Positions 4,535 to 23,879 of a stretch of 64,000 bases of DNA are shown here, piece after piece (the first letter of the stretch is position 1; every line of letters begins with the position of its first letter). The DNA comes from Bacilli bacterium (GTDB taxonomy: Bacteria; Bacillota_I; Bacilli_A; RFN20; CAG-826): the NCBI GenBank assembly GCA_017540455.1, contig JAFYAZ010000039.1, forward strand, positions 5,587-69,586, written 5' to 3'. The notes beneath the pieces were generated by a model. That model was not told the DNA's origin and ran no database searches. It saw only the letters and a program-made list of their open reading frames with translations. Position numbers and translations under genes: made by a program.

Positions 4535-4624
4535 TTACATTTCCTATATTCACGTAGTAATGTTGGCATATTTTATTACGAATTTAAATACGCGATGCAT
4601 CAAATCATAGGGTCTTGAAGAGTT

Positions 4625-7600: not shown

Positions 7601-7616
7601 AGCTAATCACCTCAAG

Positions 7617-8354: not shown

Positions 8355-8480
8355 AACGATATGCCTCCCTTGGTTGGCTTAATGGAGAACTTAAGTATCT
8401 CCATTGTTGTTTTGGTTTTCTGGAAATATATTAGCAAAAAGGAGGCGACGATTAATAGGTTTCCTTACAATCCGTTTAGA

Positions 8481-8549
8481 AAAAAGCCCCCTACTACTTA
8501 AGTAAGGGGCTGATTCATGCAGGATTTGCTAGGGATTATTTGGCTTCGG
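8481..8549. repeat. 69-bp direct repeat, copy B (right boundary of island; functional 3' end and terminator of gene 8536..11613)
   Basis: See copy A. This copy includes the stop codon at 8536-8538 and the last four codons of the 1025-aa gene. Confidence 0.9.
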
Positions 8550-11500
8550 TTGTTTTGGAGCCGTAGTTAAGAACCTTGACGAAGTCTTCCTCAGTCATTG
8601 GACGACCGAACAAGTAACCTTCAAGTCCTTTGGCGCCAAGAGAGATGGCAAGATCCCTTTGCTCAGCGTTCTCGATACCGGTGACGTAGATGTCGAAGTC
8701 GTTTCTCATCGCTGCATCTAGGAAGCGTGAGAAGTTAGCAAGCTCGTTTTCGTTCGTGGCCGCATTCCAGATGAGAGATCTCTCGGTCTTGATGATATGG
8801 ACGCCGAAGGATTTAAGGACCTCAAGAGGAACCTTATCTGGCGTGTGGTCGACACATTCGAAGACAACGCCAAGAGGCGTGAGCTCGGACATGACCTTCT
8901 TGATGGCCTCTTCCTCGTCGAGGAAGAAGGCGCTATTGATTTCAAGATGCATGTACTCACGTGGGAAGCGGTTCCTTTCGAGAATGGCTTTGACCTTCTC
9001 TGGGAATTCTGGGTCCCTAAGGGAGTCGATGGAAAGATACATCGAAAGACACTTGATGCCGACGGCTTTGAAGATGCCTGAACCATATAAGCTATAGAGC
9101 TGACCCATCATCGAGATGGCGCCGATATCGACGCGGGAGACGAGTTTTTCTTTGTTCGCGATAGGAATGAATTCACGAGGAGCGATCGGGAGTTTGTCAC
9201 GTCCATAAAGGGCGGAACGGATATCGCCTCCGATGACCTTGAGGGTGCCGCAGTCGACGATTGGCTGAGTGAGGATCGGAAGGGCGTCAGCGTCAAGCGT
9301 AGCCTGGAGGATATCGAGGATGTACTCGCTTCTCAGGGCTTTTCTTGGGTGGCGGTTTGCGACCTCGACGACATAGCCTGGGCCATAGGTCCTCTCACTT
9401 CTGATGAGCTCGTCTTTGATGGTCTGGACCATTTGCTTGGTGGTGACGATTTCAGATGGGTATGCGACGGCGCAGAAAGCGTAGTTGGCGTTGTATCTGA
9501 ATTCCCTGGCTTCAAGAGGATGGGAAAGGATCTCCGCCGCTTCTTCGACGAAGTCCATCATCTTGATCTTGGTGTAGCCCTTAAGGAGGAAGGAGATGCT
9601 ATATGTGTCGAACCTGTAAAGGAGTTCGCCATAGCCAGCATCCTGGAAGTTGGCGACGATGGAGGACATAAGCGAGTTCGCATCGGACTGCGGGAGCTCT
9701 CTTAAGGCCGCCTCGTAATCGACGAGGGAGCAAGAGACGATATAACCGCGGGCGGTCTTGGCTTTGAGCTCACGGTTGACATCGATTGAAAGAGCCTGGG
9801 CGTTCTTGATGAGGAGGGAATCATCGACAAGATGGCTTCCGGCGACAAGGCCTTGGGTCGTGCCACGCTCGATCATGATGGTCGATTCGTCGTTATTCGC
9901 TCCACGGTACTGGAGAATCGAGATCTGGGATTCGGATGGGCCGATGCTTGGGATGACACGGTGATCAGCGCCGTATCTAAGAGGGCAATGGCTGCATGGT
10001 TTGTCATGGCCTGTACGAAGTACCTTGTAGCAGATATCGCCTTCGTGAGCGCCTGGGAAGGCGTGCTTAAGGTTATCCGACATGTAAGTGATCGTATGGG
10101 TCGGACGGTCGACGGAATAGAGGTATCTGCTGGTTCTAGAGGCAAGGTTATCGAGAAGGTCATGGAGGGAATCGTCTCTCTTAGCGAGGATGTTGCCGAT
10201 GAGCATGTTGCTGAAGAAAGAGACCGCGGTCATGAAGTCTTCTTTGCTAGAAATCGAGGTTCCACTTCTCTTATTCGGAGAAAGCATGTAGATGAAACCG
10301 TAGTCGTTATTTGGGGAATCAAGGGTGGCGATGAAGAAAGACTCCATTCCTAAGGAAAGGATTGGCTCTGCGAGTTCTTTTGGAAGATCGGTGCGGGCGT
10401 TGCCGACGAACATCGTGTCTTTCTTCGCTTCGTTCACAAATGGGCCGACGAATGATAGATGGAGAACGGAACCGAAACGGGAGAAGCCTTTGTTTCCTTC
10501 GACACGAGCAGTCTCAAAGAGGAGACGGTAGTCTCTTGTCTTCTCACCATATTCATAGACGCCGGCGACTTCAAAATCGCTTTGGGTCATGAGCCACTGG
10601 ATGGCGTTCTTCAGGGCTTCGATCTCGCCTGCGTAATCCTTCGCGTGCTTGATCTCGTATTCCCATTTCTCGAAGTTGGCGAGGAAGAGAATGCGTTTGG
10701 AGGATTCGCTTAAGATGCGGTGAGGATAGTAGACGTCTTTGACGCCGTAGCTGAGATTGACTTCCCCTTCTTCTTTGAGGGCTTTCTCAGCTTCATCTAA
10801 GAAGTTATTGAGGGAGCAATACGGATAGATGACTCCGCCGATTTTGGCATGGACAAACTTCTCAACTGAAGTCGACTTATCGATCTTCAAAACGTTGAAA
10901 TTCGTGACAAATCCCTCACAAACCGTCTCTAAACCGAGGAAGGATTCGACGTTGAAGATATAAAGGGCGAGGGTCTTTTCATCGTATTTGCCAAGCATCG
11001 AATGAGGGAAGGTTTCTCTCACTTTGGCGGTCAAGGCTTCGAAGTCTTTTTCTTCGTAGGTCTTCGCGCCCTCTAAAGAGATCAAGAGGAGAGCGCTTCG
11101 ATATGAATCGTTCTTCTGGACTTCTTTCTTTAAGTTCTCGGTGAATGTCTCTTTGTCATAGACAAGACCCTGTTCGATGTCTTTATTGATAGCCTCGTCG
11201 CTAGCTTTGCCAACATAGACAAGACGGTAGTTGGAATAGTCGGCGATCGCCTGGTTCATCTGCTGCTGAATCTCAGTGAAAGCAGGGAGAACCTTGTCAT
11301 AGTCCTTGTTGATGGTCAAGAAGTTGCCATCGGCGAAGCTTCTGATCTGGGAACTGATGTCTTTGGCGAGCTTATCACCTTTCCTTGTGTAATCAAGGCC
11401 AAGATGGATGATGGTGACCGCAACCGTCAAAGCGGAGATGAGGAGGACGCCAAAACTCACCCATAAAAGGATTTTGTTCTCAAAATAGTAGGCAAATGGG

Positions 11501-11613
11501 ATGCCAACGGCCGAAATGACGAATAAGCCAAGGAAGACGGCGCCGACCACTGTCGAAGCGCGGTTCTTAAGGAAGGCCTTAAGATTGACGAGTTTGGTTT
11601 TGTTCTTTTTCAT
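8536..11613 (-). CDS. membrane protein with degenerate GGDEF-like region(s), a Cys-rich sensor segment and a degenerate (probably non-catalytic) EAL domain; candidate c-di-GMP receptor
   Basis: 1025 aa with two N-terminal TM helices. The C-terminal EAL-fold is recognisable (LTQPIVD..., REFIPIA, LEGYLFGRPM). Its key motifs are substituted: EAL becomes SAL, ELTE becomes LEINS, DDFG becomes VDHTP, and EGVE becomes TGIE. There is no GGDEF/GGEEF signature. A CYKV..PCSHCP motif sits mid-protein. Confidence 0.6.
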   Translation of the reverse strand: MKKNKTKLVNLKAFLKNRASTVVGAVFLGLFVISAVGIPFAYYFENKILLWVSFGVLLISALTVAVTIIHLGLDYTRKGDKLAKDISSQIRSFADGNFLTINKDYDKVLPAFTEIQQQMNQAIADYSNYRLVYVGKASDEAINKDIEQGLVYDKETFTENLKKEVQKNDSYRSALLLISLEGAKTYEEKDFEALTAKVRETFPHSMLGKYDEKTLALYIFNVESFLGLETVCEGFVTNFNVLKIDKSTSVEKFVHAKIGGVIYPYCSLNNFLDEAEKALKEEGEVNLSYGVKDVYYPHRILSESSKRILFLANFEKWEYEIKHAKDYAGEIEALKNAIQWLMTQSDFEVAGVYEYGEKTRDYRLLFETARVEGNKGFSRFGSVLHLSFVGPFVNEAKKDTMFVGNARTDLPKELAEPILSLGMESFFIATLDSPNNDYGFIYMLSPNKRSGTSISSKEDFMTAVSFFSNMLIGNILAKRDDSLHDLLDNLASRTSRYLYSVDRPTHTITYMSDNLKHAFPGAHEGDICYKVLRTGHDKPCSHCPLRYGADHRVIPSIGPSESQISILQYRGANNDESTIMIERGTTQGLVAGSHLVDDSLLIKNAQALSIDVNRELKAKTARGYIVSCSLVDYEAALRELPQSDANSLMSSIVANFQDAGYGELLYRFDTYSISFLLKGYTKIKMMDFVEEAAEILSHPLEAREFRYNANYAFCAVAYPSEIVTTKQMVQTIKDELIRSERTYGPGYVVEVANRHPRKALRSEYILDILQATLDADALPILTQPIVDCGTLKVIGGDIRSALYGRDKLPIAPREFIPIANKEKLVSRVDIGAISMMGQLYSLYGSGIFKAVGIKCLSMYLSIDSLRDPEFPEKVKAILERNRFPREYMHLEINSAFFLDEEEAIKKVMSELTPLGVVFECVDHTPDKVPLEVLKSFGVHIIKTERSLIWNAATNENELANFSRFLDAAMRNDFDIYVTGIENAEQRDLAISLGAKGLEGYLFGRPMTEEDFVKVLNYGSKTTEAK

Positions 11614-11624: not shown

Positions 11625-12356
11625 TTATTCGTTGACATCCTCAGTGCGGGCCACGAGGATTCGGGTGATGATCTTGCCGATTGTCGGCATCATCTCTAAG
11701 CCCGTGCGGATGTAGTTGATTCTTTCGCGTTCTTTGCCCATTTGCATCGCGACGCCTTTGATGGTCAAAAGGGCGGTGTTGTTAAGATGGCAAACCATCG
11801 CGATAGCGGCGCTTGTGTTGTCGTAAGCGCGCATGTTCTCTTCTTGGACGAGGAAGTGGTTTTGGACGATGGTTGAGACCTTATTCGGCATGAAATAGAA
11901 AGAGGAACCAGAAAGAAGGAAGCCTCTTTGGACGTATCTCGTCGTCATGAGATAAGCGTTCTTCTCAGCGCGGTCATTGATAAGGTTATCGGCGACGAAG
12001 AATGGGTCTCTTCCTGGGATTTGGCCATAGACGGCCTCTTTGTTATCGGTGAAATCGATGTCAGCGTAGAAATAACGGTCGGCGATGAATAAATCCCCTT
12101 GGCGGAGTTCGTCGCTGAAGCTATAGACCGAGCCGACATTGAAGACCATGTATGGGTCGAACTTCTCGATGATGAGGGTCATGATGATGCCGGCATCAAC
12201 AAGAGATGGTCCTGTCGCGGCAACGATGCAATCCTCACGGAAAATGCTGCCCTGATAGACTTTGAAGCCTCCGGTCAGGGTCACTTCTTTCGGATTCCCC
12301 ATCTTCGCTTTGAAATAGAGGATGTCGTCGCTAGTCGTACCGATTATGGCGATCAT
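11625..12356 (-). CDS. MTA/SAH nucleosidase (Pfs/MtnN, PNP_UDP_1 fold)-like protein, divergent
   Basis: 243 aa. It aligns by eye with E. coli MtnN: IAIIGTTSDD vs IGIIGAMEEE, YGQIPGRDPFFVAD vs YGQLPGCPAGFKAD, and SAAIAMVCH vs ATAIAHVCH. The region of the catalytic ISD(V) reads VAMQMG. Its start overlaps the stop of the upstream EAL gene (ATGA). Confidence 0.55.
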   Translation of the reverse strand: MIAIIGTTSDDILYFKAKMGNPKEVTLTGGFKVYQGSIFREDCIVAATGPSLVDAGIIMTLIIEKFDPYMVFNVGSVYSFSDELRQGDLFIADRYFYADIDFTDNKEAVYGQIPGRDPFFVADNLINDRAEKNAYLMTTRYVQRGFLLSGSSFYFMPNKVSTIVQNHFLVQEENMRAYDNTSAAIAMVCHLNNTALLTIKGVAMQMGKERERINYIRTGLEMMPTIGKIITRILVARTEDVNE

Positions 12357-13927
12357 TTGGCTACCTCCCCTGCTTTCTTCTTCTCGAATGGGTTATTGCT
12401 AAGGAATCTCTGGAATTCGAATTCGCCAAGCGGGCGGCTATAGTAATAGCCTTGGACGGCGTCGATGCCAAGTTCCTTGACGATGTTCTTCTGGATCTCG
12501 GTTTCCACGCCTTCGGCGATGGTCTTCATGCCTAAGGAATGTGAGATGTCATTGATGCAACGGACAAGGTCGCGGCTCTTCTGGTCAAGCTCAACCTCAT
12601 CGATGAAGGACTTATCGATCTTAAGGGTGTCGAAAGGAATCTTCTTTAAGGAAGAGAAAGCCGAATAGCCCATACCGAAGTCATCGATTGAGGTATCAAG
12701 GTCAAGGGCTTTGATCTTTCTGATCATGGCTGAGACGAAGACGGCGTCTTGAGCGGCCATGGATTCGGTGAGCTCAATCTCAATCCATTTAGGATTGATC
12801 TCGTATTTCTCCATCGTTTCCTTATAGAAAGAGAGGATATCTGGCGCAAGAGCGGTTTTTCTGGAAAGGTTGATGGAGACCTTAGGGATACGTTTTCCTT
12901 CGGCCTTCCACTTCTTCATGTTCTTGCAGACCTGCTCGAAGACGTATTTATCGACCTCGATGATACGGCCGGATTGCTCAGCGAACGGGATGAAGAGGGA
13001 TGGAGGGAGAAGACCACGGGATGGGTGGTTCCATCTGACAAGGGCTTCAGCGCCGAAGAAGGTTTCGTCATGAAGGTCGAATTTAGGCTGATAGAAGACT
13101 TGGAGCTGCTCTTCGTTGATGGCGTTGCCTAGTTCGCTAGAAAGGGAACGTTCGCCTTCATCATCCATCATGAATTCCTCGCTATAGACGATGACGTCGC
13201 TAGAGATACGGGATGAGAGGTTATAGGTGCCGGCGATTTGGGCTTTGCTATAGACGTCTTCGAAAGGCTGGCCATGATGGGCGTGATAGACGCCGCAAAG
13301 GATAGCGACATCAGGCATTGTGCCATCTTTCTCGAGGAGATAATTGACTCTTTGGCAGATGGACTGGAGCTCTTCGATGAAAAGGGATTCCTCCCCTCCT
13401 TTTTTGATGAGGATCCAACCCTTGGTTGGGGAGAAACCATAAGCGTAGTTCTTATTGTCTTTGCCAACCGCCTCATGTATCGCGGCATATAAAGCGTCGT
13501 TGATGATACGCGGTCCTTTTTGGCCATAGATGCTACGGAGTCGGGCGATGTTTCTGACATCGAGGACGGCAAAGAGGGATTCCGCTTTCCTTCTAAGCAT
13601 CATGTAGCGATAGTTCTGCTTCAAAGCAGATTCATTGAAGATATAGATCTCCTTCGTGAAGTTGTCTTTGGCGATATCTCTATCTATCGCCGACATCGCA
13701 AGGACGTTCTGGTAGAGAAGGGAGACGACGATGAGAACGGCGTTGACGATGATGGTGACATAAAGGCTGACGATGAAACCAGGCTTGTAGTAGCCTCTGA
13801 TCATGATCGTGTAAAGGATGATTGAGGCGATGGTGTTGATGCCTAAAAGGAGATAGATGATATAGGCGTTCCTCTGGTGGGTCTTATAAGAGAAACGGGA
13901 AGCGAAAAAGTTAAGTAATCGTCTCAT
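12353..13927 (-). CDS. membrane-bound c-di-GMP phosphodiesterase (degenerate GGDEF + canonical EAL)
   Basis: 524 aa with two N-terminal TM helices. The GGDEF position reads GFSPT, so it is degenerate. The full EAL signature set is present: QPKF, EALVRW, SINLS, EIELTES, DDFGMGYS, KIDKSF, EGVET and QGYYYSRP. Its start overlaps the sipW-like stop. Confidence 0.8.
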   Translation of the reverse strand: MRRLLNFFASRFSYKTHQRNAYIIYLLLGINTIASIILYTIMIRGYYKPGFIVSLYVTIIVNAVLIVVSLLYQNVLAMSAIDRDIAKDNFTKEIYIFNESALKQNYRYMMLRRKAESLFAVLDVRNIARLRSIYGQKGPRIINDALYAAIHEAVGKDNKNYAYGFSPTKGWILIKKGGEESLFIEELQSICQRVNYLLEKDGTMPDVAILCGVYHAHHGQPFEDVYSKAQIAGTYNLSSRISSDVIVYSEEFMMDDEGERSLSSELGNAINEEQLQVFYQPKFDLHDETFFGAEALVRWNHPSRGLLPPSLFIPFAEQSGRIIEVDKYVFEQVCKNMKKWKAEGKRIPKVSINLSRKTALAPDILSFYKETMEKYEINPKWIEIELTESMAAQDAVFVSAMIRKIKALDLDTSIDDFGMGYSAFSSLKKIPFDTLKIDKSFIDEVELDQKSRDLVRCINDISHSLGMKTIAEGVETEIQKNIVKELGIDAVQGYYYSRPLGEFEFQRFLSNNPFEKKKAGEVAK

Positions 13928-14985
13928 TGCTTTTCTCCTTCCTTAGCGAATTCGGCTAAAATCTTAGCCTTCTCTTCTTGCTTTATCCTTTCAAGCTCCT
14001 CCGATTTGGCGAGTTCTTCTTTGGCTTTCTTGAATTCTTCGAGGAAGAGGGCCTTCTGCTCTTGCTTCATGGCTTCCATCTCTTTCTCGATCTCTTTTCT
14101 CATCTGGTATTTCTCTTTGAAGATGAGGACGGCTTTCTCGTCGGTTGGATCGATACCGGCGGCAAGCATCTCCGCTTTCATCTCGTCTTCCTCTTTCTTC
14201 TTCTCGACGCGGTATCCCTTGATGAAATCAACGACCGTCATGCCTCCGATGATGAGGATTGGGACGAGGATGGCGACTGGGACGAACCAGACGCTTTGGA
14301 CGGTATGGAGGACGCCTCCGAAGAAGTGGCTATGTGAGATGACGTTGCCAACGTAGTACTTCGATTGGACGGTGTCCCTATATGTTGATTCAACGGCTTT
14401 GCCGGTGACTTTGGTGTACCATTCGGCGTTGAGGTTGTCGCCGCAGGTGTAGAAAGTCATCTCGGATTTGCCACTCCAGTTAGGGATGATATGGGTGAGG
14501 GTGTGCTCTTTGTCTTCTTTTGAGCGGGTCTGGAAGGATTTGCCTTCTTCGAGCTCTACGGTTTCGCCACCAGTGAACCAGGTAATACCGCTATCGATGG
14601 TATATTCGAAGGCAGGAGAGACTTCGAAAGAGCCTTTTTCCCCTGCTTTTGCTGGGGATTCCACGATTTCGATGACACGGTGGGAGACGCAGTATCCGAT
14701 CGCGTCGCTATAGAAGGCGATGATCTCGCCGGCTTTTACATCGTTAACGTCTTTCTTCTGGATGACGACGCCTTCGCCCGCGTCAAAGGAATCAGGATTC
14801 TTCCCTTCCATTGAGTCGGTGAGGACTTCCATGAAGCTATAGCCGAAAAGAGATGGGATGCCATAGTTGTTGTTCTTGGTGATGAACATATCAATCTGAA
14901 GTCCCAAAATCAAAACGATGAGGGCACCGAGGATGATGTCCACGATCTTCGAGGCGATTTTTTTCTTCTTCTTTTGCTCTTCCAT
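13924..14985 (-). CDS. sipW: SipW-type (ER/archaeal-type, S26B) signal peptidase I with large insertions and a C-terminal TM + E/K-rich coiled-coil tail
   Basis: 353 aa. It has an N-terminal TM, the catalytic-Ser box VLTDSMEG (cf. SGSMEP), the His box SHRVIEI and the GDN box TCGDNLNAEW. A second TM (VWFVPVAILVPILIIGGMTVV) is followed by ~100 aa of KE-rich predicted coiled coil. It is about twice the length I recall for B. subtilis SipW. Confidence 0.7.
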   Translation of the reverse strand: MEEQKKKKKIASKIVDIILGALIVLILGLQIDMFITKNNNYGIPSLFGYSFMEVLTDSMEGKNPDSFDAGEGVVIQKKDVNDVKAGEIIAFYSDAIGYCVSHRVIEIVESPAKAGEKGSFEVSPAFEYTIDSGITWFTGGETVELEEGKSFQTRSKEDKEHTLTHIIPNWSGKSEMTFYTCGDNLNAEWYTKVTGKAVESTYRDTVQSKYYVGNVISHSHFFGGVLHTVQSVWFVPVAILVPILIIGGMTVVDFIKGYRVEKKKEEDEMKAEMLAAGIDPTDEKAVLIFKEKYQMRKEIEKEMEAMKQEQKALFLEEFKKAKEELAKSEELERIKQEEKAKILAEFAKEGEKQ

Positions 14986-14989: not shown

Positions 14990-17041
14990 CTATTTGGCTT
15001 TCTTGATGCGGAAAACTTTTTCTTTGCTCTCTGGCTTCTCTTCTTTGGCGTCTTTCTTCACCTTGATGAACTTCGGCGAAGCGGCTTTGTTTTGCTCAGC
15101 GTGAGGACTACCGACGAAGGTGATATGTCCGAATGGGTCGGTCTTGATTCCGCCGATATCGAGTGCGTACTTCGAATAACCCCTACGGACGCGGACCACG
15201 GTAGGCGTGATCTTCTCGATTTTTTTGCTTGGGGCGATGATGGTCACTGTCTTTCCTCTTTCTTCTTCGGAGCGTTTCTCTTTTTCGACTTCGGCAAGGC
15301 GGGCTTTGTTCTTCTCTTCTTCGGCGAGCCTTTCTTCAAGTTCGGCGATTCGTTTGGCTTGGGACTCGTTTTCCTTCTGGAGCGCCTCTAACTGTTCTTT
15401 GTCGGCGTTATATTGCTCGAGCGGAACGGTGAAGGTCTGTCCATCGGAGAGGGCTTCTTCGGAGGCTGTCTCAACTGGAGCAGACTCCCCTGCAGCTTCT
15501 TCAGCGAGTGGCTCTGGTCCTTCGACGATTGGAGCAGGTCTACCCTTGGCGAGCTCATCGGCGATCGATTCATCAAGAGGAGCGTCTTCTTGCGCCATAG
15601 CGAGGATTCTTTCGCGGGCTTCTTTGAGGAGTTCGTTTTCTCTCGCTAAACGGATCTCGGTCTCGATTCTGATTTTTTCTTCGAGCTCACGGAGTTTCTG
15701 GGCTTCTTCTTCTTGGCGTTTGGCTTCAGCCGCAGCGCGTTCTTCTTCGAGTTGCTTCTCTTCCGCTTTACGGCGTTCCATCTCGGCGATGATGGCTTCC
15801 TGATCCATGAAGTTTCTCTCTTCTTCGGCTTGTTCACGGAGCTCTTTGGCGGTGAGCATCTCGGCGGTCAGGTATTCGTTGTCGCTTTCTTTGAAGGCTT
15901 TGACCTCGTCTGGGGTCCAGGCGAAATCCTTCTCTTCTGGCTCTCTTTCTGGGGTGACAAGAAGGGATTCGTGCTCTGGGAACTGGTCGTAGCGGAACTT
16001 ATGGGAAAGGAAGGTCTCATCCTCAAGAGAAAGCATGACCTTTGGCTCAAAATGCTTGGTCATCGCTTTGGCGGATTCCTTCTCATCCTTGGTTTTGACT
16101 TTTCTGTTGTCGATGAGGTGGGTATGGAGGGTGGCCATTGAGGCAGCGGTTAACCCATAGACCTCATTGAAGTAGCTCTCATCGAATTCGCCCTTCTTCT
16201 CCTCAATATCGAAGGAGATGCCGAGTTTGGTGTATGAATCGATGAACTTCCAAAGGACCGCGACTTTGTGGTAGTCAGGGTTCTTTAAAAGGAGGTTGGT
16301 CATCTGGAGTGGTGAGTGGACACTTTTGGCGTCCTTCATCTCCTCCATGAATGGGGACTTGATATAGAAGTTGACGCGTTCGGAAAGGTTCTTGATACGG
16401 GCAAGGAGCATCTTGTTCTTCTCGTATTCGCCTTTATCGTCGGATTCGATGGAGATCTTGATGCGATTATCGACTTCGTAACGGACTCCATCGATCTCGG
16501 TCTTTGAGTGGATGAAAAGAACATCGGAGTTACGGGTCTCACCCTTATCCGAGATGAACTGGACACGTTTCTCAACGAAGAAAGTGAGTCGCTGGATGAG
16601 AGACATAAGAACGCGGTTCTCATAGATCTGCATATCGACGTCGGAGCCGATTGAGAGAATGCGTTCAGGGACGATCTGGCCTTGCTTGTTGAAGCCATGG
16701 ATATAACGGGTATGGGACGCTAGATGGCGGATGGAGGTTGAGTTGATACGCTTGGCCTGTCCTGCTAAGACGAGATCCTGCGTCTCCTTGATGAAGGTAC
16801 GAGGATGGGCGATGATGCGGTCGATCGCGTCAAAGCCGGTGTCGAGCTCGGTGACCCATTTGTCGTCGTAGGTCTTGTTTTCGTGGCGGTTCCTTTGGAA
16901 AACACTGTTCTCCCCGGTCTTCTTGATGGCCTCAACGAACGACTTGAAAGGAAGGCTTCCCTTCAAGAGGGAATCCATCTTCTTCATGTAGTCAGCATGA
17001 ACGCGCGTCAGTTTTGCGGTGTCTTTTTCCTTTTTGGCCAT
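14990..17041 (-). CDS. 683-aa coiled-coil protein, partner of the McrB-like ATPase (McrC-position; no nuclease motif seen)
   Basis: The N-terminal ~340-aa globular part contains ...DMQIYENRVLMSLIQRL..., reminiscent of the (T/P)ENR-hydrophobic motif of McrC/DUF2357 N-domains. Residues ~370-620 are an E/K/A-rich coiled coil. The C-terminus is basic. It lies immediately downstream of the McrB-like gene. Confidence 0.45.
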   Translation of the reverse strand: MAKKEKDTAKLTRVHADYMKKMDSLLKGSLPFKSFVEAIKKTGENSVFQRNRHENKTYDDKWVTELDTGFDAIDRIIAHPRTFIKETQDLVLAGQAKRINSTSIRHLASHTRYIHGFNKQGQIVPERILSIGSDVDMQIYENRVLMSLIQRLTFFVEKRVQFISDKGETRNSDVLFIHSKTEIDGVRYEVDNRIKISIESDDKGEYEKNKMLLARIKNLSERVNFYIKSPFMEEMKDAKSVHSPLQMTNLLLKNPDYHKVAVLWKFIDSYTKLGISFDIEEKKGEFDESYFNEVYGLTAASMATLHTHLIDNRKVKTKDEKESAKAMTKHFEPKVMLSLEDETFLSHKFRYDQFPEHESLLVTPEREPEEKDFAWTPDEVKAFKESDNEYLTAEMLTAKELREQAEEERNFMDQEAIIAEMERRKAEEKQLEEERAAAEAKRQEEEAQKLRELEEKIRIETEIRLARENELLKEARERILAMAQEDAPLDESIADELAKGRPAPIVEGPEPLAEEAAGESAPVETASEEALSDGQTFTVPLEQYNADKEQLEALQKENESQAKRIAELEERLAEEEKNKARLAEVEKEKRSEEERGKTVTIIAPSKKIEKITPTVVRVRRGYSKYALDIGGIKTDPFGHITFVGSPHAEQNKAASPKFIKVKKDAKEEKPESKEKVFRIKKAK

Positions 17042-17082: not shown

Positions 17083-18669
17083 TTAACCAACGTCCTTGAG
17101 GAAGCCGGCGATCTTGGCTTTGGACATCTTGAACTCGGCTTTGCCAAAGAGCTTGGTGAGCTTGGCATCGAGTTCGATTAAGTCATCGCGTAAGTGGGCG
17201 ATGTTAAGGGATTCGAATTTCTTTAAGATCTTCGTGGCGAAGATGTAGTCAACGCCTTCAAGTTCGGTTCCGCCGGTGGCGACGTAGCATGGGACGAAGG
17301 CATTGAGCTGCTTAAGAATACGGTTACCAAAGGCAAGCTTAAAGTGTTGGATGACAAAGTCATCGAGCTCAGTGAACTTCTCTAAGGTCTTTCCGGAGAT
17401 TGGGAAGTTGCTATTGGCTTCGGCATAAAGCTTCATTAAGTATTCGAATGGGAGAGGGAGACCCTCGGTGAATGGCGCTTCAAAGGCGATACCTTTGTTA
17501 TCGAAGAAGAGCGACATAGCACGGTCATAGACCTTATCGGTGATGGTGAAGGTCGAGTCATCGTTGTTCGCGGTGCCGATGAACCAGACGTTCTGAGGGA
17601 TGAGAAGCTTACCATCATGGAGGTGCTTAGGATCGTCTTTCTGCGGGGAAGAGATGAGGTCGATGTTCCAGGCCGATGGGTTAGGCATTTCCATGATGGA
17701 AAGGAATTCGGCGAAGTAGTACTCGATACGGGCGATGTTCATCTCATCGAGGACGATGAGGTTGATGTCCTCTCTGAAGGTGGATTCGTAGATGCTTCTT
17801 AAGAATTCGGTCTCGGTGAACTTCTTGGTGAAGTCGTTGTAGAAGCCTAAGAGCTCGGAACGGTCACGCCAGGAAGGCTGGACGGAGCAGATGGTGCAGT
17901 TGTTCTGGAAGAATTTCCCCAAAGCGTATGGCAAAGAGGTTTTACCTGTACCGGAAATACCTTCGAGAATGATGATCTTGCCGGTTCCCATGGAAGCGAA
18001 GAAAGCGCGCATGGCTGGGATGGTGTAATAGAGTTTGAGCTGGGAAGCGGCGTAGTTTCTGAATCTTTCGACGATTTCCTGAAGGGAGATGTCGGTTGCG
18101 TCTGCTGGAAGTTCGACATGGGTGGAAATCTCAGCGTATTTCTCGTCGACGGCGATAAGACGAGGGAATCTGACGTCTTTCTCGCCTGGGACCCCTCCTT
18201 CTTCCGTTTCTTCGGTTTCTTGAGCGTTAGAAGAGGTGGAAATCTCGCTAGAACCTCCGACAGAGATCGATTCGGATGGGGATAGGCCAAGGGAATCGAG
18301 CTGGAGGCCAAGGATTCTGTTCTTTTCTTGGGTGGCGTTATAGAGTTCGATCTGAAGGTTCTGGACTTCTTCGCGGAGTCTTTCGCGATCGATCTCGGTG
18401 CGGTAGAACTTGATGTATTTTCTAAGCAGCCAATAGATGAGGAAAACGAGTGCGCCTATCGCTGCGACGAAGAAAATGGCAAAGAGGACGAAGAAGAACC
18501 AGCCCCAGAAGCCAAAACCGCTGGCGAAATTGTCGAAAATGATTCCGTACTGGACGAAATCATCTGGGACATCGGCCCACGGGACGGCCCATCTCTGGTT
18601 CAGCCATCTGCCGAAATTGGATAATACGGCGACGACCATTTCACGAAGGTAATTGAAATAGTTTTCCAT
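17083..18669 (-). CDS. membrane-anchored McrB-family (AAA_5) AAA+ NTPase
   Basis: 528 aa. An N-terminal TM helix (FGFWGWFFFVLFAIFFVAAIGALVFLIYWLL) is followed by a short coiled coil and an acidic/Ser linker. The AAA+ core has Walker A LEGISGTGKTS and Walker B plus the McrB signature LIVLDEMNIARIEYYFAEFLSIME (cf. E. coli McrB FIIDEINRANLSKVFGEVMMLME). It also has IPQNVWFIGTANNDDS...VYDRA (cf. VPENVYIIGLMNTADRS). No DNA-binding N-domain was recognised. Confidence 0.7.
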   Translation of the reverse strand: MENYFNYLREMVVAVLSNFGRWLNQRWAVPWADVPDDFVQYGIIFDNFASGFGFWGWFFFVLFAIFFVAAIGALVFLIYWLLRKYIKFYRTEIDRERLREEVQNLQIELYNATQEKNRILGLQLDSLGLSPSESISVGGSSEISTSSNAQETEETEEGGVPGEKDVRFPRLIAVDEKYAEISTHVELPADATDISLQEIVERFRNYAASQLKLYYTIPAMRAFFASMGTGKIIILEGISGTGKTSLPYALGKFFQNNCTICSVQPSWRDRSELLGFYNDFTKKFTETEFLRSIYESTFREDINLIVLDEMNIARIEYYFAEFLSIMEMPNPSAWNIDLISSPQKDDPKHLHDGKLLIPQNVWFIGTANNDDSTFTITDKVYDRAMSLFFDNKGIAFEAPFTEGLPLPFEYLMKLYAEANSNFPISGKTLEKFTELDDFVIQHFKLAFGNRILKQLNAFVPCYVATGGTELEGVDYIFATKILKKFESLNIAHLRDDLIELDAKLTKLFGKAEFKMSKAKIAGFLKDVG

Positions 18670-18693: not shown

Positions 18694-19755
18694 TTAGTTG
18701 TTCGTTGGCGCCACGGTGCGGTGCTCACCCATAAAGGCGATATGCGCATTGAAGGCGGCGTTGATGAGGTCGTTGGAGCATTCTTTGTCCCAACCCTCAA
18801 GGTAGATGGTGATGACGAGTCTCTTGACCTCGTTTGGGGCGATGTAGGTCACCCACTTCTTCGTATGAAGAAGCTCGGAAAGGGAATAGGTCTCCTCTTC
18901 TTTGATCTTGAGGTTTCCTTCGCTGACCGATTTATCAAGGTTGAGATGCCTGATGCCGGCTTTCGTCTTGCCTCCGACACCTGGTTTGGCGTTGTCGTAT
19001 TCATGATGTTCGACATCATGGTCCACGGCGTCATCGTAAATCAAATTGGCGTCTTCATTATATTCCCCATACAATACTTCTTCAAAAGAAGAATTGTAAT
19101 CGATGTATCCGTCATAGAAGCTGACATCGAGGAGGCCGCCTAATTTGGTCTTGCTTCCAGTTTCGACATTCGGCTCATAAATGACATATCCATCTTCCGA
19201 GTAGAAGGACACGCGGATGGCGTCTTCAACAGAGTTGAGGGCTTCCACGCTGGTGCCGGTCTGGACAGCGGTGACCTCGTTGCGGGCGTTATTGGCTCTG
19301 ACGGAGGTGGTTGGGTCGAGATAGACATAGGTTCCAACGTCGCTAGTGAGGAAGATCTCCTGCTGGTAGAAGCCACTTGTGGCCTCGCCGGTCTCACGGT
19401 ATCCCCTGGCAGAAGGGTATTCGCTAGAGAGGGTCGGGAATCTGTCGTTAAGATAGACGCTGTTATCCTGGAACATCGAGCTCACTGGAGTGAGATAGAA
19501 TTCGCCGTCATTGGAGATGCTGTCCCCTGCTGCGAACTCGATCATGCCAAGCTCGTTTCTTTCACCGATGCGGATATCGTGGTTGGTTGCTTCAACGTGG
19601 ATGTTTCCGACGGTGAGGAAGTCAGAGACGCTGAACCAGGCGATCGTGGAGGTGACGAACGCGCTCAAAGTAAGCGAAAAAAGGGCTAAAGCAGCCCAAA
19701 GCAGGCTTTGTTGCCTGACGCCGATTTTTTTCACTCTACGTACGCGCGTAAACAA
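18694..19755 (-). CDS. exported TasA/camelysin-like protein (paralog 3) with SipW-class signal peptide
   Basis: 353 aa. The signal is ...LLWAALALFSLTLSAFVTSTIAWFSVSD (cf. TasA ..GGGTWAAFND, CalY ..GGGTFAYFSD). It shares AIRVSFYSED, YLDPTTS and the C-terminal VITIYLEGWDKEC strand with the other three paralogs. The TTG start lies unusually close to its GGGAGG, so the exact start is uncertain. Confidence 0.6.
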   Translation of the reverse strand: MFTRVRRVKKIGVRQQSLLWAALALFSLTLSAFVTSTIAWFSVSDFLTVGNIHVEATNHDIRIGERNELGMIEFAAGDSISNDGEFYLTPVSSMFQDNSVYLNDRFPTLSSEYPSARGYRETGEATSGFYQQEIFLTSDVGTYVYLDPTTSVRANNARNEVTAVQTGTSVEALNSVEDAIRVSFYSEDGYVIYEPNVETGSKTKLGGLLDVSFYDGYIDYNSSFEEVLYGEYNEDANLIYDDAVDHDVEHHEYDNAKPGVGGKTKAGIRHLNLDKSVSEGNLKIKEEETYSLSELLHTKKWVTYIAPNEVKRLVITIYLEGWDKECSNDLINAAFNAHIAFMGEHRTVAPTNN

Positions 19756-19768: not shown

Positions 19769-20797
19769 TTACTCTGAAATTTCTTCAGAAGCGTTTAACA
19801 CGCTTCCGGTCGACTCGTCTCTTGCCCAGGACTGGGTGAGGTTTTCGCTCGTGAAGTGCATCGACATCGTCAAAGCGGAACCCACAGGGTTCTCACCCAC
19901 ACAGTCGGCGTCGAAGCCTTCGAGCCAGATGACGACGGTGAAGCGTCGGATCTCACGAGGCATGAGATAGGTCTCATTCTTCATGACGATCATCGCTAAC
20001 GGATCACTTCCGTCGTCGTTAAGGAAATTCGTGCAATATCCTTTGTTCTCTTCTCTTTTCGCCGTGTATCCGTTGGTGGTCTCAGTGGTTCCGGTGATGA
20101 GCTCATTGTTCGAGGCGTTGGTCGAGAATGACTTCGCTCTGCGTGCGTATGTGCCCACCATCTCGTGCTTGAGTTCATTCTCGTCGAAGTGAGAGTCATA
20201 GACTCTGACCCTGACGATGTCCTCAATCGAACAGCTGGCATCAACGTTGGATGGTTCGGTGATGGAGGAGAAATCGATGTAGTAGTTTGCTTTTGCCATT
20301 TCGCTTGGCGAGGAGTTCCTTAAGTAGAATGTGTACTTGAAAGAATAGTCTTGGGTGTTCTCGACATCGGTCGGAGCGTTCTTGCGGCTTCCGAGGATGA
20401 CGGATTCATCGGCGACATCGGCATCGACGAAGTCCTCTTCGAGGAGATCGTCCGCGCACATCGGCGTGGTGCACTCATAACCGCCTGCCATCAGGTAAGT
20501 GGTTCTGTTTTTAAGATCGGTGCCTGAGGTGCTTGATGTGAGCGAATCACCGATCGAGAGCTCGTTTCTGACTTGCTCAAGTTTGACGGTGAATGAACCG
20601 AAGTTACGGCCTAAAAGGGCGATGATGATGAGAACGGTGAGAACGCTGATGGACACGCCTAAAATGATGGCGGCGATACGCCTTCTGCGTCTGCGCTTAA
20701 GAAAATCAGGCTCTCTTGGCTCGATCAACTTGACCGCAGAGTCGCTGCCATTATCTAAAGTAACTGTCTCAACAGGCTCTATTTGTTCCAAAACCAT
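19769..20797 (-). CDS. membrane-anchored TasA-like paralog (paralog 4); first gene of the riboswitch-controlled operon
   Basis: 342 aa. A ~40-aa cytoplasmic N-tail ending RRRRRR is followed by a TM (IAAIILGVSISVLTVLIIIALLG). The ectodomain has IVRVRVYDSH and VVIWLEGFDADC motifs shared with the paralogs. A GGAGG RBS lies 2 nt upstream of ATG 20797. Confidence 0.55.
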   Translation of the reverse strand: MVLEQIEPVETVTLDNGSDSAVKLIEPREPDFLKRRRRRRIAAIILGVSISVLTVLIIIALLGRNFGSFTVKLEQVRNELSIGDSLTSSTSGTDLKNRTTYLMAGGYECTTPMCADDLLEEDFVDADVADESVILGSRKNAPTDVENTQDYSFKYTFYLRNSSPSEMAKANYYIDFSSITEPSNVDASCSIEDIVRVRVYDSHFDENELKHEMVGTYARRAKSFSTNASNNELITGTTETTNGYTAKREENKGYCTNFLNDDGSDPLAMIVMKNETYLMPREIRRFTVVIWLEGFDADCVGENPVGSALTMSMHFTSENLTQSWARDESTGSVLNASEEISE

Positions 20798-20879
20798 AAC
20801 CTCCTTGAAAAAGGCTCTTAGCTTTGTTTGTTCAAAGCAAAACCAAAGGTTTTATGTAAGAGTATTTTAGTTCAATGAT

Positions 20880-20935
20880 GGCGAAAGAAAAACGGCGCTA
20901 CTTCTCTCTGCGCCGCCGGGACGAGGCTTTCGCCT
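20880..20935 (-). terminator. intrinsic terminator = expression platform of the c-di-GMP riboswitch
   Basis: The minus-strand RNA is CGGCGC-agagagaagua-GCGCCG followed by UUUUUCUUU (stem at + 20893-20898 / 20910-20915). It is enclosed by an outer pairing GGCGAAAG/CUUUCGCC (+ 20928-20935 / 20880-20887). It lies ~85 nt upstream of the first start codon. Confidence 0.7.
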
Positions 20936-20997
20936 ACCATCAGAATCACTTTTGTTCCAGGGCACAAGCAGAAGATTCTGGATATTCACGCTCATCG

Positions 20998-21110
20998 ACC
21001 CAGTTGCCCACTGAATCTAGAGTACTGAACTCCAGGCAACTGGCTACCACGCATATATTGCGAGGCCCTGTAGCTTTGCGTCGCCATGTTTCCATGGGTT
21101 TGCTATACAC
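20998..21110 (-). promoter_or_regulatory. c-di-GMP-I (GEMM-I) riboswitch aptamer
   Basis: The minus-strand RNA is GCGUGUAUAGCAAACC-CAUG-GAAA-CAUG-GCGACGCAAAGCUACAGGGCCUCGCAAUAUAUGCGUGGUAGCCAGUUGCC. It contains GCAAACC, a GAAA-capped stem, the near-invariant GACGCAAAGC, the second helix GCUAC...GUAGC and a trailing CAGUUGCC. This matches my memory of Vc2 and Bacillus GEMM-I sequences. Confidence 0.8.
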
Positions 21111-21114
21111 GCAT

Positions 21115-21143
21115 ATAATAGGTAAGGATTTTTACGTTGTCAA
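21115..21143 (-). promoter_or_regulatory. SigA-type promoter driving the riboswitch and operon
   Basis: The minus strand reads TTGACA (+21143-21138), a 17-nt spacer, then TATTAT (+21120-21115). The predicted TSS is a few nt before the aptamer. Confidence 0.7.
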
Positions 21144-21620
21144 GAGGGACGCACTCACTTTTTTTACAATCCTGAAAGCGTTTTCAAATTCTTTAGACAA
21201 TTTATAGTCATGCGCATCCTTATATTTATATACATACGCGCAAGAAGAGGGTCTTCTGGATCTGAGACCGGTGGTTTTGTAAAGATGAACCCCTACTTCT
21301 AGCTGGTTTTGGATTCAGATTTGACTGTTTTGAGAATTTCGTTCTTGAATTGTAAAGTTTTCTATGTTGTGAAAAGTCCACTGCCAATCGAGTATTTTAA
21401 ACTTTCTTAAAAATTGTTGAGTGTATTGCACTTGCAAAGATTCCAATCGTTATCTAAACTTATGGTGTCCTCAAAAAGGGCTCAAAAACAACTTGCCCGT
21501 TGTTCCTTCGAGAGGATGGTCGGACGATCACTCCGACGGTAAAGAAAGAAATCCATCAGAACCCAGACAATTGAAGCTGGGCTTTTCTGCTTATAAGCTT
21601 CAAGGAAGGAAATTACGATT

Positions 21621-22721
21621 ATGACCAATAGATCAAAAATGATTCTCGGCTTAGCCTCACTCCTCGGCGTCACCGCTGGTGCCACTGCTGTTTCCGGCTT
21701 TGCCTGGTTCGTTACCACCAAGACTGCTGATGTCAGCGTCACCAACATTAAAGTCTTCAATGACAACCCATCCCTCTCTGTCAGACTCGAGAACTTAGAA
21801 GGTGTCAAGCTCACTAATGATGCTGCAAACAACTTCGCCCTCAAGGCTGCCAAAGATACAACCAGCGTCGACGAAGAGTGGACTGCTGCTGCTGACCAAA
21901 CAGACTTCGTTCTCCCAACTAAACCACTTGCCGCTCCAACCGTTACTATTGACGGTGTGGTCGACACCACGCTTCATTCCTATGATGCTGCTAATAAGAC
22001 GATTCACTTCGATGCTGCTCCTGGTGCCGGCAAGAAAATCCGTGCTACCTACTATGACAAAGCTGCCTTAACCGACGTCAGCTCCTTGAATGGTAAGGAT
22101 TTCTATGATCCTACCTGGGAAACCGCCAACGAAGGTAAGAAAGCTACCTTAATTGATGACGCGGTTGCGGGCGAGCAGTACATCGCCTTCGATATGGTCT
22201 TCAGCGCTCCAACCACCGGAAGCCTCAAGGTCTATCTCAGCCAACCTTCAATCGAGGGCATCGACGAAACGAACAATACTGCTGACGCTGCTGCCGCTTC
22301 TGTTGCCCGTGTTGGTTTCTACAACGAAGATACCCACGCGAGTGTCCTTACTCTTTCTAGAAACATCGGCGACCATTACAACAAAGGCATCAGCAAAACC
22401 AAAGTTGAAAGTTACGATACCGGTAGCGGCACCGTCAATGCAAACACCGTCGACGGCCACTACACCATCGATCCAAACGTTCTTGACACCTGCACCACTC
22501 TTGCCACCCCATGTGCCACCGACTACAGCGTCATGAGCTCAGCTCCAACTTCAGGAACCGACCTTTCTAACAACTTCATCGCTCTTATCGACGGCTCAGA
22601 CGTTAGACTTCACGTCACCATTTGGCTTGAAGGAACCTCTAACACCACTGATGGAGACTACAGCGCTCCTATCGGCGGAGAAATCAACGTCACCCTCCCA
22701 ATTGTCGCCTTTGGCGCCTAA
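21621..22721 (+). CDS. exported TasA/camelysin-like fibre-subunit candidate (paralog 1), SipW-class signal peptide
   Basis: 366 aa with an AAGGAAGGA RBS. The signal is MTNRSKMILGLASLLGVTAGATAVSGFAWFVTTK. It is Thr/Ala/Asp-rich with only two Cys in the mature part. The C-terminal strand HVTIWLEGTSNT resembles the TasA C-terminal ..LQFSFEATQ. It shares LTDVSS.NG..FY.P.W, LKVYL..PSI and ARVGFYNED with paralog 2. Confidence 0.65.
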   Translation: MTNRSKMILGLASLLGVTAGATAVSGFAWFVTTKTADVSVTNIKVFNDNPSLSVRLENLEGVKLTNDAANNFALKAAKDTTSVDEEWTAAADQTDFVLPTKPLAAPTVTIDGVVDTTLHSYDAANKTIHFDAAPGAGKKIRATYYDKAALTDVSSLNGKDFYDPTWETANEGKKATLIDDAVAGEQYIAFDMVFSAPTTGSLKVYLSQPSIEGIDETNNTADAAAASVARVGFYNEDTHASVLTLSRNIGDHYNKGISKTKVESYDTGSGTVNANTVDGHYTIDPNVLDTCTTLATPCATDYSVMSSAPTSGTDLSNNFIALIDGSDVRLHVTIWLEGTSNTTDGDYSAPIGGEINVTLPIVAFGA

Positions 22722-22772: not shown

Positions 22773-23879
22773 ATGACAAAAAAATCAAAGATGATTCTTG
22801 GCCTCGCTTCCATGCTTGGCGTCTCAGCCGGTGCTGCCGCTGTTAGCGGCTTCGCCTGGTTCACCACCACCAAAAAAGCCACCGTTGATGTCACTAACAT
22901 CGGCGTCTACAGCAAGAGCAGCAACCTCAACGTTCAATACACCGCCGCTGTTAAAGGATGTATCGACGATCCTAACGATGCCTCAAGTGTTGGCGATATT
23001 AATATCATGGCTAGCGCAGAAAAGACCCAAAACTTCACTGGCGACGGAACCACCACTTCGTTCACCCTTGACTTAGAACCTTATGCAGCTCCAACCGCTA
23101 CCGTCGATGGGAATACCACTGCCGTCACTTGGACATCCGGAAAAACCATCTCATTCGCATCCGCACCTGGCAACGGCCTCCCTATCGTCGTTACCTACAA
23201 GACTCATTCAGTCTTAACAGACGTTTCTTCTGTCGATGGACAAAAGTTCTACAAACCAGTTTGGACTGCCGGAAACGAAGGCTTATATGCCACTTCAATC
23301 TTGTCTTCTGCTCTCCCGACACCAACCCTTACCGAAGGTTGGCTCTCCTTCACAATGACTCTTACCGCAAATGGTAGCAGCCCACTTAAAGTATTCCTCA
23401 ATACCCCAAGCATCACGGCCGCTACTGGTGCTACCACAGAACAACAGGACGCAAATGATGCCGCTGCGGAGATCGCCCGTGTCGCGCTTATCGAAGATGA
23501 AACCCACTATTTGGTTTTACAAAATACTAGCGTCGCTACGAACAATCTTGGCATCAACCAAACTTATGTCAACGACAACAGCTTAAAGACTAATGGCTTG
23601 TACGATTTGTCAAAACTTGCTGAAGAAGTTGATGAAGACCATTTCGCAATTCCTAACGCTTCCGACAAGAGCAATCTATCTGATGCTCCAGCGGAGAACG
23701 CTACGCAGAACTACGTTACTACTGTCCCAGCCGGCGCATCTAAAGTTATCACCGTCGCCATTTGGCTCGAAGGAACAAGCCACATCACCGCTTATACCGC
23801 TCCTTCTGGCGGTGGCAGCTATTCTGCCGATCCAGCAAACGGTATCTTCAGTGTGGCTCTCCCACTCATCGCCTTCTAA
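22773..23879 (+). CDS. exported TasA/camelysin-like fibre-subunit candidate (paralog 2), SipW-class signal peptide
   Basis: 368 aa with an AAGGAG RBS. The signal is MTKKSKMILGLASMLGVSAGAAAVSGFAWFTTTK. The C-terminal strand is ITVAIWLEGTSHIT and the C-terminus is ..LPLIAF (paralog 1 ends ..LPIVAFGA). It sits in tandem, 51 nt after paralog 1. Confidence 0.65.
   Translation: MTKKSKMILGLASMLGVSAGAAAVSGFAWFTTTKKATVDVTNIGVYSKSSNLNVQYTAAVKGCIDDPNDASSVGDINIMASAEKTQNFTGDGTTTSFTLDLEPYAAPTATVDGNTTAVTWTSGKTISFASAPGNGLPIVVTYKTHSVLTDVSSVDGQKFYKPVWTAGNEGLYATSILSSALPTPTLTEGWLSFTMTLTANGSSPLKVFLNTPSITAATGATTEQQDANDAAAEIARVALIEDETHYLVLQNTSVATNNLGINQTYVNDNSLKTNGLYDLSKLAEEVDEDHFAIPNASDKSNLSDAPAENATQNYVTTVPAGASKVITVAIWLEGTSHITAYTAPSGGGSYSADPANGIFSVALPLIAF

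Follow-up and report, generated by a model that had tools for sequence, protein, structure and literature searches.

Bell, Sahakyan, Makarova, Wolf and Koonin (eLife 2024; PMC11090510, section 7) gave the name CoCoPALM to systems in which an McrB-like GTPase with an NxD motif is fused to an FtsB-like transmembrane (TM) and coiled-coil domain, in which both the McrB and the McrC homologues carry coiled coils, and which are associated with the signal peptidase family. A single paragraph was devoted to these systems and their analysis was deferred to a later publication; the whole clade was treated as relatives of type IV restriction systems, and according to the same study no McrB homologue of the NxD branch has been characterised biochemically (PMC11090510). 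We found neither CoCoPALM entries in the supplementary text files of the study that we examined nor a follow-up paper. The stretch of DNA analysed here (the window; 64,000 nucleotides of contig JAFYAZ010000039.1 from the Bacilli bacterium assembly GCA_017540455.1) contains on its minus strand (17083..18669) an open reading frame (ORF), complete from ATG to stop, which by homology encodes a 528-aa McrB-like AAA+ nucleoside triphosphatase (NTPase) of the CoCoPALM type. Judged from its sequence, the locus is a CoCoPALM system with all features stated for these systems except for the FtsB homology. The architecture of the NTPase, which a first reading of the DNA (the original prediction) had regarded as unusual, is therefore not unprecedented. 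We consider it probable that the locus encodes an McrBC-derived, membrane-tethered NTPase module which was recruited to the biogenesis of a surface structure regulated by cyclic dimeric GMP (c-di-GMP), and which does not serve restriction.

The AAA+ core and the membrane anchor

Sequence comparisons give good support to the assignment of the NTPase to the McrB-type AAA+ proteins (AAA_5) and, among these, to the NxD-motif branch, with intact catalytic motifs. The family profile and all statements on motif invariance are based on 31 homologous sequences. McrB was the sole significant sequence match of the NTPase in PDB (phmmer, hmmsearch). HMMER aligned residues 300-390 with residues 271-354 of E. 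coli McrB (E 0.002-0.004), reproducing alignments that had originally been made by eye, and the 31-sequence profile extended the similarity to the entire AAA+ core (hmmsearch against PDB, E 4.4e-5, 175 positions). In profile-profile comparisons with hhalign, E. coli McrB was matched with a probability of 96.3% (E 1.9e-9, 237 columns) as opposed to 6.3% for E. coli RavA, for which only 47 columns in the Walker A region were aligned. All 31 family members match Pfam AAA_5, and the best NCBIfam match of the NTPase is the McrB model, far under its cut-off. The PADLOC model PDC-M26A matches the core region only, at E 8.5e-38; this match is strong because the nearest relatives of the NTPase without TM segment are of the CoCoNuT type. 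Together with the DUF2357 family of the partner protein discussed below, these results uphold the placement of the NTPase in the McrB family by the original prediction.

The catalytic motifs can be followed residue by residue. The Walker A motif GISGTGKTS (residues 237-245; 17935..17961, minus strand) and the Walker B residues D308-E309 within VLDEMN (VLDE being residues 306-309; 17743..17748, minus strand) are invariant in the 31 homologues and align with their McrB counterparts. The McrB signature, or sensor 1, is N368-N369-D370-D371, the NxD+D variant by which the CoCoNuT/CoCoPALM branch is defined (17557..17568, minus strand; PMC11090510) and which is likewise invariant in the family; in the segment TANNDDS, HMMER aligned NNDD with NTAD of McrB. 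An invariant arginine, R383, is aligned with RRR of McrB. Among the 150 nearest representatives of clusters at 50% identity, approximately 130 contain N-x-D-[DE], and the pattern was unmatched in 9 of them. The gene is real: a strong Shine-Dalgarno sequence, AAAGAGGAGAG, is located 8-9 nt upstream of the ATG, and Met1 is invariant in the family alignment. Full-length homologues of 500-533 aa with 54-98% identity are found in more than 60 genomes; more than 8000 clusters at 90% identity match the NTPase, and the best 120 of these are all 458-533 aa long.

At its N-terminus the NTPase has one hydrophobic segment (residues 48-86; 18412..18528, minus strand; Kyte-Doolittle 19-residue maximum 3.07), which is predicted to span the membrane, and a hydrophobic N-terminal segment is present in 120 of 120 close homologues. 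An AlphaFold2 (AF2) model of the full-length protein (predicted local distance difference test, pLDDT, 75.6) shows a continuous helix from residue 53 to 126 that combines the TM segment with a charged stretch of about six heptads. This putative coiled-coil stalk (87-126) is followed by an acidic Ser/Thr/Glu linker (~127-165; stalk and linker together 18175..18411, minus strand), as seen both in the AF2 model, in which residues 128-163 are disordered (pLDDT <50), and in the composition of residues 128-165 (24% Ser, 21% Glu, 8% Thr). Hydropathy, structure prediction and composition thus agree with the hydrophobic helix, heptad region and acidic linker described in the original prediction. The 20 residues preceding the TM segment have a net charge of -4 and contain no Lys or Arg, and the 20 residues following it contain seven; the positive-inside rule predicts from this an orientation with the N-terminus outside and the C-terminus inside, and the AAA+ domain, stalk and linker would therefore be cytoplasmic. 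No DNA-binding domain was detected in residues 1-165 by domain-family searches, including Pfam searches with 31 members. The view that a TM anchor takes the place of a DNA-reader domain is thus sustained by the conserved anchor and by the lack of a detectable DNA-binding family.

The partner protein, the secreted proteins and the riboswitch

The context of the NTPase was compared among 80 related loci in GTDB representative genomes, 67 of which encode an NTPase with a single TM segment, while 13 lack a single-TM anchor. The NTPase gene is part of a unit of eight minus-strand genes extending from 21143 to 8485, in which gaps do not exceed 41 nt and two pairs of genes overlap by 4 nt; between the genes (intergenic gaps of 4-41 nt) there is no internal terminator of note. 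The unit begins with a sigma-70-type promoter-like site (TTGACA-17-TATTAT, 11 of 12 matches; 21115..21143, minus strand) directly upstream of a riboswitch aptamer, and it ends with a strong intrinsic terminator (11-bp stem with six G-C pairs and a T-run; 8485..8511, minus strand).

Downstream of the NTPase lies the gene for a 683-aa McrC-like partner (14990..17041, minus strand). Its N-terminal domain (residues ~1-350) is of the DUF2357 family, residues 351-610 are acidic and heptad-like (23-26% Glu, 12-14% Ala, net charge -34) and were called coiled-coil or low-complexity from composition alone, and residues 611-683 form a basic C-terminal tail with a net charge of +10. DUF2357 (PF09823) is matched by 12 of 26 homologues of the partner, with a best E value of 4.3e-10 and scores of 28.7-42.6 bits at a gathering score of 23.3; partners from Paracholeplasma and Anaeroplasmataceae exceed the gathering threshold as well, and the window protein is 36-50% identical to homologues that match the model. 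In an iterated hidden Markov model search, the partner family was found next to the NTPase in 62 of the 67 single-TM loci and in 10 of the 13 other loci. In PDB, a profile of the full partner matched nothing but low-complexity coiled coils, and a nuclease domain was not found in it with Pfam, NCBIfam, PADLOC or PDB. By sequence, the partner is an McrC N-terminal (DUF2357) family protein without detectable nuclease. Neither a nuclease nor a HEPN domain nor any other effector could be detected in the whole operon in Pfam, NCBIfam and PADLOC scans, and a VWA protein was not found in it with Pfam and NCBIfam.

The next gene, which begins 4 nt downstream of the partner gene, encodes a 353-aa homologue of SipW/archaeal-type signal peptidase I (13924..14985, minus strand) that matches NF046067 (E 3.6e-14) and TIGR02228 (E 2.4e-10), in both cases under the equivalog cut-off; its relatives in two other loci (L058, L060) exceed the TIGR02228 cut-off, and Peptidase_S26 was detected in L058. 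The protein is unusually long: it has two TM segments, its catalytic domain contains an insertion, and the second TM segment is followed by a Glu/Lys-rich coiled-coil tail of about 95 aa on the cytoplasmic side. With the predicted coiled coils of the NTPase and the partner, three operon proteins therefore have cytoplasmic coiled coils. Of the 67 single-TM loci, 49 encode a SipW homologue; the 13 loci without single-TM anchor encode none.

Four window proteins of 342, 353, 366 and 368 aa, joined by BLAST and by a C-terminal WLEG motif, constitute an orphan family of secreted proteins. Two of them precede the NTPase in the operon: a 353-aa protein (18694..19755, minus strand) whose signal-anchor ends in TSTIAWFS, and a 342-aa protein (19769..20797, minus strand) whose cytoplasmic N-terminal tail ends in RRRRRR and precedes a single TM segment (39-71) and an extracellular part. 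The latter is, by its sequence features and synteny, a candidate membrane-anchored paralogue whose TM segment is apparently not cleaved. The other two are encoded divergently on the plus strand, namely the 366-aa protein (21621..22721), a candidate major subunit with a signal-anchor ending in SGFAWF, and its 368-aa paralogue (22773..23879; 38% identity). Three of the four, the exception being the 342-aa protein, share the signal-anchor ending [ST]x[FYI]AW[FY], and 43 such AWF-motif signal-anchor proteins were found across 32 loci. Members of the family are encoded in approximately 61 of the 67 single-TM loci and are missing from all 13 other relatives; a search of 5.8 billion sequences yielded 123 homologues, and all 120 of those listed are unannotated.

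The original prediction had described the operon as one for an exported fibre. The SipW-type peptidase and the co-encoded secreted proteins bear out the export; the proteins belong to an orphan family that has no detectable sequence link to TasA, and their polymerisation is unproven, since they show no detectable similarity to TasA, pilins or solved structures. The neighbours of orthologues, which were proposed as a check, point the same way as the window: orthologues with a single TM segment are found together with peptidases of the SipW type and with secreted proteins. Considering the closer similarity to McrB than to MoxR/RavA, the conserved anchor, these links and the lack of a detectable nuclease in the operon, nothing that was found speaks for abandoning the original argument against classical modification-dependent restriction, and such a role is therefore unlikely.

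The aptamer at the head of the operon (21032..21114, minus strand) is a c-di-GMP-I riboswitch (RF01051), with an Rfam score of 56.5 bits at a gathering score of 35. Six further loci have c-di-GMP-I aptamers with scores of 47.6-62.7 bits, and with a covariance model built from seven examples 47 aptamers were found across the related loci. An aptamer lies upstream on the same strand in 41 of the 67 single-TM loci (L005, L007, L008, L017, L025, L051, L060 and about 35 more), or in 32 of the 40 for which at least 3.5 kb of upstream sequence are available; the same model found none in the 13 relatives without single-TM anchor. The expression platform of the window riboswitch contains a candidate intrinsic terminator (GGCGGCGC-N11-GCGCCG followed by a U-run; 20884..20917, minus strand; from sequence and ViennaRNA) and a competing hairpin, in which the 3' strand of aptamer stem P2 pairs with the downstream sequence GGGCAACUGG (ViennaRNA). 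The terminator hairpin is present both in the ligand-free and in the aptamer-sequestered folds (minimum free energy and stepwise folding), so that the ON/OFF logic is ambiguous. A 110-aa ORF opposite the riboswitch and the promoter (20875-21207, plus strand) is almost certainly spurious. Some loci have a second aptamer, located in L025 (2847-2925, minus strand) ahead of an AWF-motif gene (2815-2009, minus strand) and in L035 (19926-20003, plus strand) ahead of another (20024-20881, plus strand); as the aptamers are directly upstream, these genes would be under their own c-di-GMP control. Second copies occur likewise in L029, L038 and L041.

Control by c-di-GMP riboswitches and EAL genes are typical of lifestyle and adhesion regulons. 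Two membrane proteins with EAL domains are encoded in the distal part of the operon. The 524-aa protein (12353..13927, minus strand; Pfam EAL, E 1.8e-65) has a complete-looking domain that retains the motifs EAL, ELTE, DDFGMG, KIDKS, EGVE and QG, and it is likely a c-di-GMP phosphodiesterase. In the 1025-aa protein (8536..11613, minus strand; E 7.3e-26) the domain is degenerate; read by eye, SAL replaces EAL and VDHTPD replaces DDFGTG, so that it may either act as a c-di-GMP receptor or be inactive. Of the 67 single-TM loci, 47 have EAL genes; the 13 other relatives have none. Between these two genes lies that of a 243-aa protein similar to methylthioadenosine/S-adenosylhomocysteine nucleosidases (11625..12356, minus strand; family searches), which is kept in 39 of the 67 single-TM loci. 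A third membrane EAL protein (654 aa, E 2e-58) is encoded elsewhere in the window (55381-57345, plus strand), and among the window proteins scanned Pfam detected no GGDEF cyclase domain.

Distribution of the module and its possible roles

The carriers are mostly metagenome-assembled genomes (MAGs) from rumen and gut, labelled "Bacilli bacterium", "Erysipelotrichaceae", "Mollicutes", Candidatus Enteromonas and Enterosoma; the NTPase is also found in Acholeplasma, Anaeroplasma and Paracholeplasma vituli. In approximately 55 loci, at 54-98% identity, the NTPase/partner pair occupies this position and is flanked by the same genes, and the operon appears to be vertically conserved across many related genomes. 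N-terminal hydrophobic segments are found in 86 of the 150 nearest cluster representatives; the other 64 have long charged N-termini instead.

Two further contexts point to independent parallels toward a surface- and c-di-GMP-related role. In Borkfalkia-like Clostridia (L070, 4392-11131, plus strand; L067, 3554-6940, plus strand; and L069) a 544-aa McrB-like NTPase with about four TM segments directly follows genes for PilD (A24), an unidentified 417-aa ORF, PilC (T2SSF) and PilB (T2SSE), the latter containing MshEN, which is a c-di-GMP-binding domain. In Paracholeplasma vituli strain 92-19 (L068, 25-13150, plus strand) and an Acholeplasma sp. (L061, 3-10015, plus strand) the pair of single-TM NTPase and DUF2357 protein follows a giant surface protein with cadherin-like repeats (2778 aa in L068) and a TM protein with GGDEF and EAL domains; SipW and the AWF protein are absent at these two loci.

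Other relatives differ in their N-termini. At five loci of Clostridia and CAG:307-type genomes (L071, L073, L074, L075, L077) McrB-like NTPases of 757-935 aa have at least six N-terminal TM segments. A partner of about 500 aa is encoded after each of them, and that of L071 matches DUF2357; this polytopic variant is not described in the text of Bell et al. 2024 (PMC11090510). The nearest relatives without TM segment, for example those from Acinetobacter, Agitococcus, Flavobacteriaceae and Limisphaerales, are 765-830 aa long, of which an N-terminal coiled coil takes up about 450 aa. Five CoCoNuT-like loci (L072, L076, L078, L079, L080) encode an McrB-like protein of this size with a coiled coil and an McrC-like protein together with a PP2C-like and kinase-like pair, a superfamily 1 (SF1) helicase of about 1100 aa and a protein of about 510 aa, and the Acinetobacter CoCoNuT-like cluster adjoins type I restriction-modification (R-M) genes.

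The principal alternative, favoured by ancestry, is a defence or conflict system, in which a membrane-tethered McrBC/CoCoNuT-like module would sense phages, for instance via a surface filament serving as receptor, and in which the secreted proteins would be sensor or decoy and not cargo. The NTPase belongs to the NxD branch of McrB, whose characterised context is defence, and matches the PADLOC defence-candidate model PDC-M26A, its closest relatives without TM segment have SF1 helicases, PP2C/kinase pairs and type I R-M genes as neighbours, and Bell et al. 2024 (PMC11090510) treated the clade as relatives of type IV restriction. However, an effector is missing among the detectable domains of the operon, the gene order is conserved, apparently vertically, across many related genomes, the operon lies among housekeeping genes in the window, and the c-di-GMP riboswitch and the EAL genes fit a lifestyle or adhesion regulon. 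Moreover, none of the 13 relatives without single-TM anchor, those in defence islands included, has SipW, the secreted family or EAL. We therefore regard a defence role as unlikely.

Even less probable, in our view, is that the McrB-like/DUF2357 pair represents a selfish or otherwise independent two-gene cassette that landed in a surface operon to which it has no functional connection. McrBC-type pairs are mobile, and loci of Acholeplasma and Paracholeplasma have the pair but neither SipW nor the secreted family. Yet its position between the same genes in approximately 55 loci, the gaps of only 4-41 nt without internal terminator of note and the coiled-coil tails on three operon proteins including the peptidase all argue against such a cassette, and loci with a different cargo again have a surface protein and a c-di-GMP enzyme next to the pair. 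Finally, it is highly improbable that the NTPase is an AAA+ chaperone of the MoxR/RavA type or a division factor like FtsB or FtsL: Foldseek ranks RavA and NorQ among the top matches, two homologues bear the JGI names "MoxR-like ATPase" and "cell division protein FtsL", and FtsB and FtsL likewise combine an N-terminal TM helix with a coiled coil, but the profile similarity to RavA is restricted to the Walker A region, the partner is a DUF2357-family and not a VWA protein, none of the 31 family members match DivIC/FtsB Pfam models, the predicted topology is opposite to that of FtsB and the operon contains no division genes.

A role of the module in surface-structure biogenesis has to be weighed against several results that do not favour it or leave links in the argument unsupported. 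The function of the NTPase module is inferred only from its gene neighbourhood, and CoCoPALM systems have so far been named but not characterised. The nearest relatives without TM segment (CoCoNuT, or PDC-M26-like) are located in defence islands. The 683-aa partner of the window is itself below the Pfam threshold for DUF2357 and has no other Pfam match, the AF2 model of its N-terminal domain found no significant Foldseek match in PDB and did not recover McrC, and hhalign of its profile against E. coli McrC gave a null result. For the secreted family, searches with the four proteins, their relatives and a 9-sequence profile found no match in Pfam, NCBIfam or PDB, including TasA and pilins, and TasA-like fibres are not known to need a cytoplasmic motor, so that the added role of an NTPase is puzzling. 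When the full-length AF2 model of the NTPase, with its long N-terminal helix, was compared with PDB by Foldseek, MCM, RavA, dynein, NorQ and BrxL led the matches (E ~1e-5, TM-score ~0.3) and McrB was outside the top 50; the comparison does not discriminate among AAA+ clades, because the long helix is included and the listed matches are all AAA+ proteins with similarly low TM-scores. Lastly, none of the 31 family members has a DivIC/FtsB Pfam match at E<=1, and the published FtsB homology was thus not reproduced. FtsB has a topology that is the reverse of the cytoplasmic C-terminus predicted for the NTPase, and homology of the N-terminal domain to FtsB would accordingly imply an orientation opposite to the predicted one.

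If the module acts in the biogenesis of a surface structure, a mechanism can be sketched by analogy. From what is known of McrBC structures, the NTPase would form a hexameric ring tethered to the membrane, and the DUF2357 domain of the partner might insert into this ring and switch on the NTPase, which is probably a GTPase, as in McrBC. The coiled coils of NTPase, partner and peptidase could assemble one complex at the cytoplasmic face, which would link hydrolysis of nucleoside triphosphates to the steps by which the secreted proteins encoded with it are processed, assembled or anchored, and c-di-GMP signalling would turn the operon on or off. A bolder version, which we offer as a possibility with considerable doubt, is that CoCoPALM is a hitherto unrecognised c-di-GMP-gated machine that builds, anchors or retracts a new class of surface filaments in wall-less or Mollicutes-like Bacilli, in which a restriction-derived McrB/McrC motor is wired through coiled coils to a SipW-type peptidase and acts on AWF/WLEG proteins. 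If this were true, it would represent a new class of filament-assembly NTPase that evolved from a motor of the immune system.

McrBC is the textbook example of a GTP-driven restriction motor, and a branch that has lost the DNA reader and the nuclease and gained a membrane anchor and a fixed place in a surface operon would clearly exemplify how a motor of defence is taken over for the biology of the cell surface. The riboswitch and the EAL genes supply a defined inducing signal for experiments, and Paracholeplasma vituli strain 92-19 could serve as a host for genetics. Most of what is known of the carriers, which are abundant Bacilli of rumen and gut, comes from MAGs, and their adhesion biology is essentially unexplored.

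The window neighbours of the operon are housekeeping genes, among them a candidate PHP-type replicative polymerase, PolA, Fpg and EzrA. A segment of lower GC content (window positions 4000-8400; ~0.41 compared with ~0.49 in the flanks) encodes a UvrD-like helicase of 991 aa that carries Top1-type zinc ribbons at its C-terminus (4625-7600, minus strand) and a protein of 245 aa that contains Cys pairs resembling zinc ribbons and matches no family (7617-8354, minus strand). This segment might have been acquired as a module of its own. A 429-aa AAA_14/DUF4143 ATPase is encoded roughly 4 kb away from the divergent genes of the secreted family (27574-28863, minus strand).

Comparison with described systems

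With E. coli McrBC the window locus shares an AAA+ core with Walker A, Walker B, sensor-1 Asn-x(x)-Asp and a conserved Arg, and also the order of two genes with that of the McrC family (DUF2357) downstream. In contrast to McrB, the NTPase has a TM anchor where McrB has its DNA-reader domain, and its signature is NxD(D), whereas that of McrB is NxxD in the published classification. The window partner lacks the PD-(D/E)xK nuclease and shows no hhalign similarity to McrC, and the genomic context is one of secretion and c-di-GMP and not of R-M.

CoCoNuT systems (CnuB/CnuC, PADLOC PDC-M26) are closer in sequence; the NTPase cores are 32-40% identical, the relatives of the CoCoNuT type having an N-H-D-E-T motif, and the partners are homologous. 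However, the coiled coil of CnuB is soluble, spans about 450 aa and is not accompanied by a TM segment, and CoCoNuT loci contain a CnuH-like helicase, kinase/phosphatase genes and R-M neighbours, while SipW, the secreted family, EAL genes and the riboswitch are absent from them and present here.

The tapA-sipW-tasA and sipW-bsaA operons resemble the window in another respect, as they combine a SipW/archaeal-type peptidase with several paralogous secreted proteins. SipW-dependent signal peptides carry GTFA[FY]F, which resembles the ending [ST]x[FYI]AW[FY] of the window proteins. Unlike in these systems, the window secreted proteins have no detectable sequence similarity to TasA/Peptidase_M73 and the peptidase has an additional cytoplasmic coiled-coil tail; TasA operons are not known to contain an AAA+/DUF2357 pair.

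CoCoPALM remains the closest described system. The NxD GTPase with its TM and coiled-coil N-terminal domain is seen in the window NTPase, the DUF2357 McrC homologue with a coiled coil in the window partner and the signal-peptidase association in the window operon; the difference is that searches with Pfam models did not recover the FtsB homology of the N-terminal domain. Bell et al. 2024 (PMC11090510) mention neither c-di-GMP, riboswitches or EAL proteins nor a secreted AWF/WLEG family or a coiled-coil tail on the peptidase. The linkage to a riboswitch and EAL genes, the coiled-coil-tailed peptidase and the orphan secreted family thus appear to be new relative to the CoCoPALM paper.

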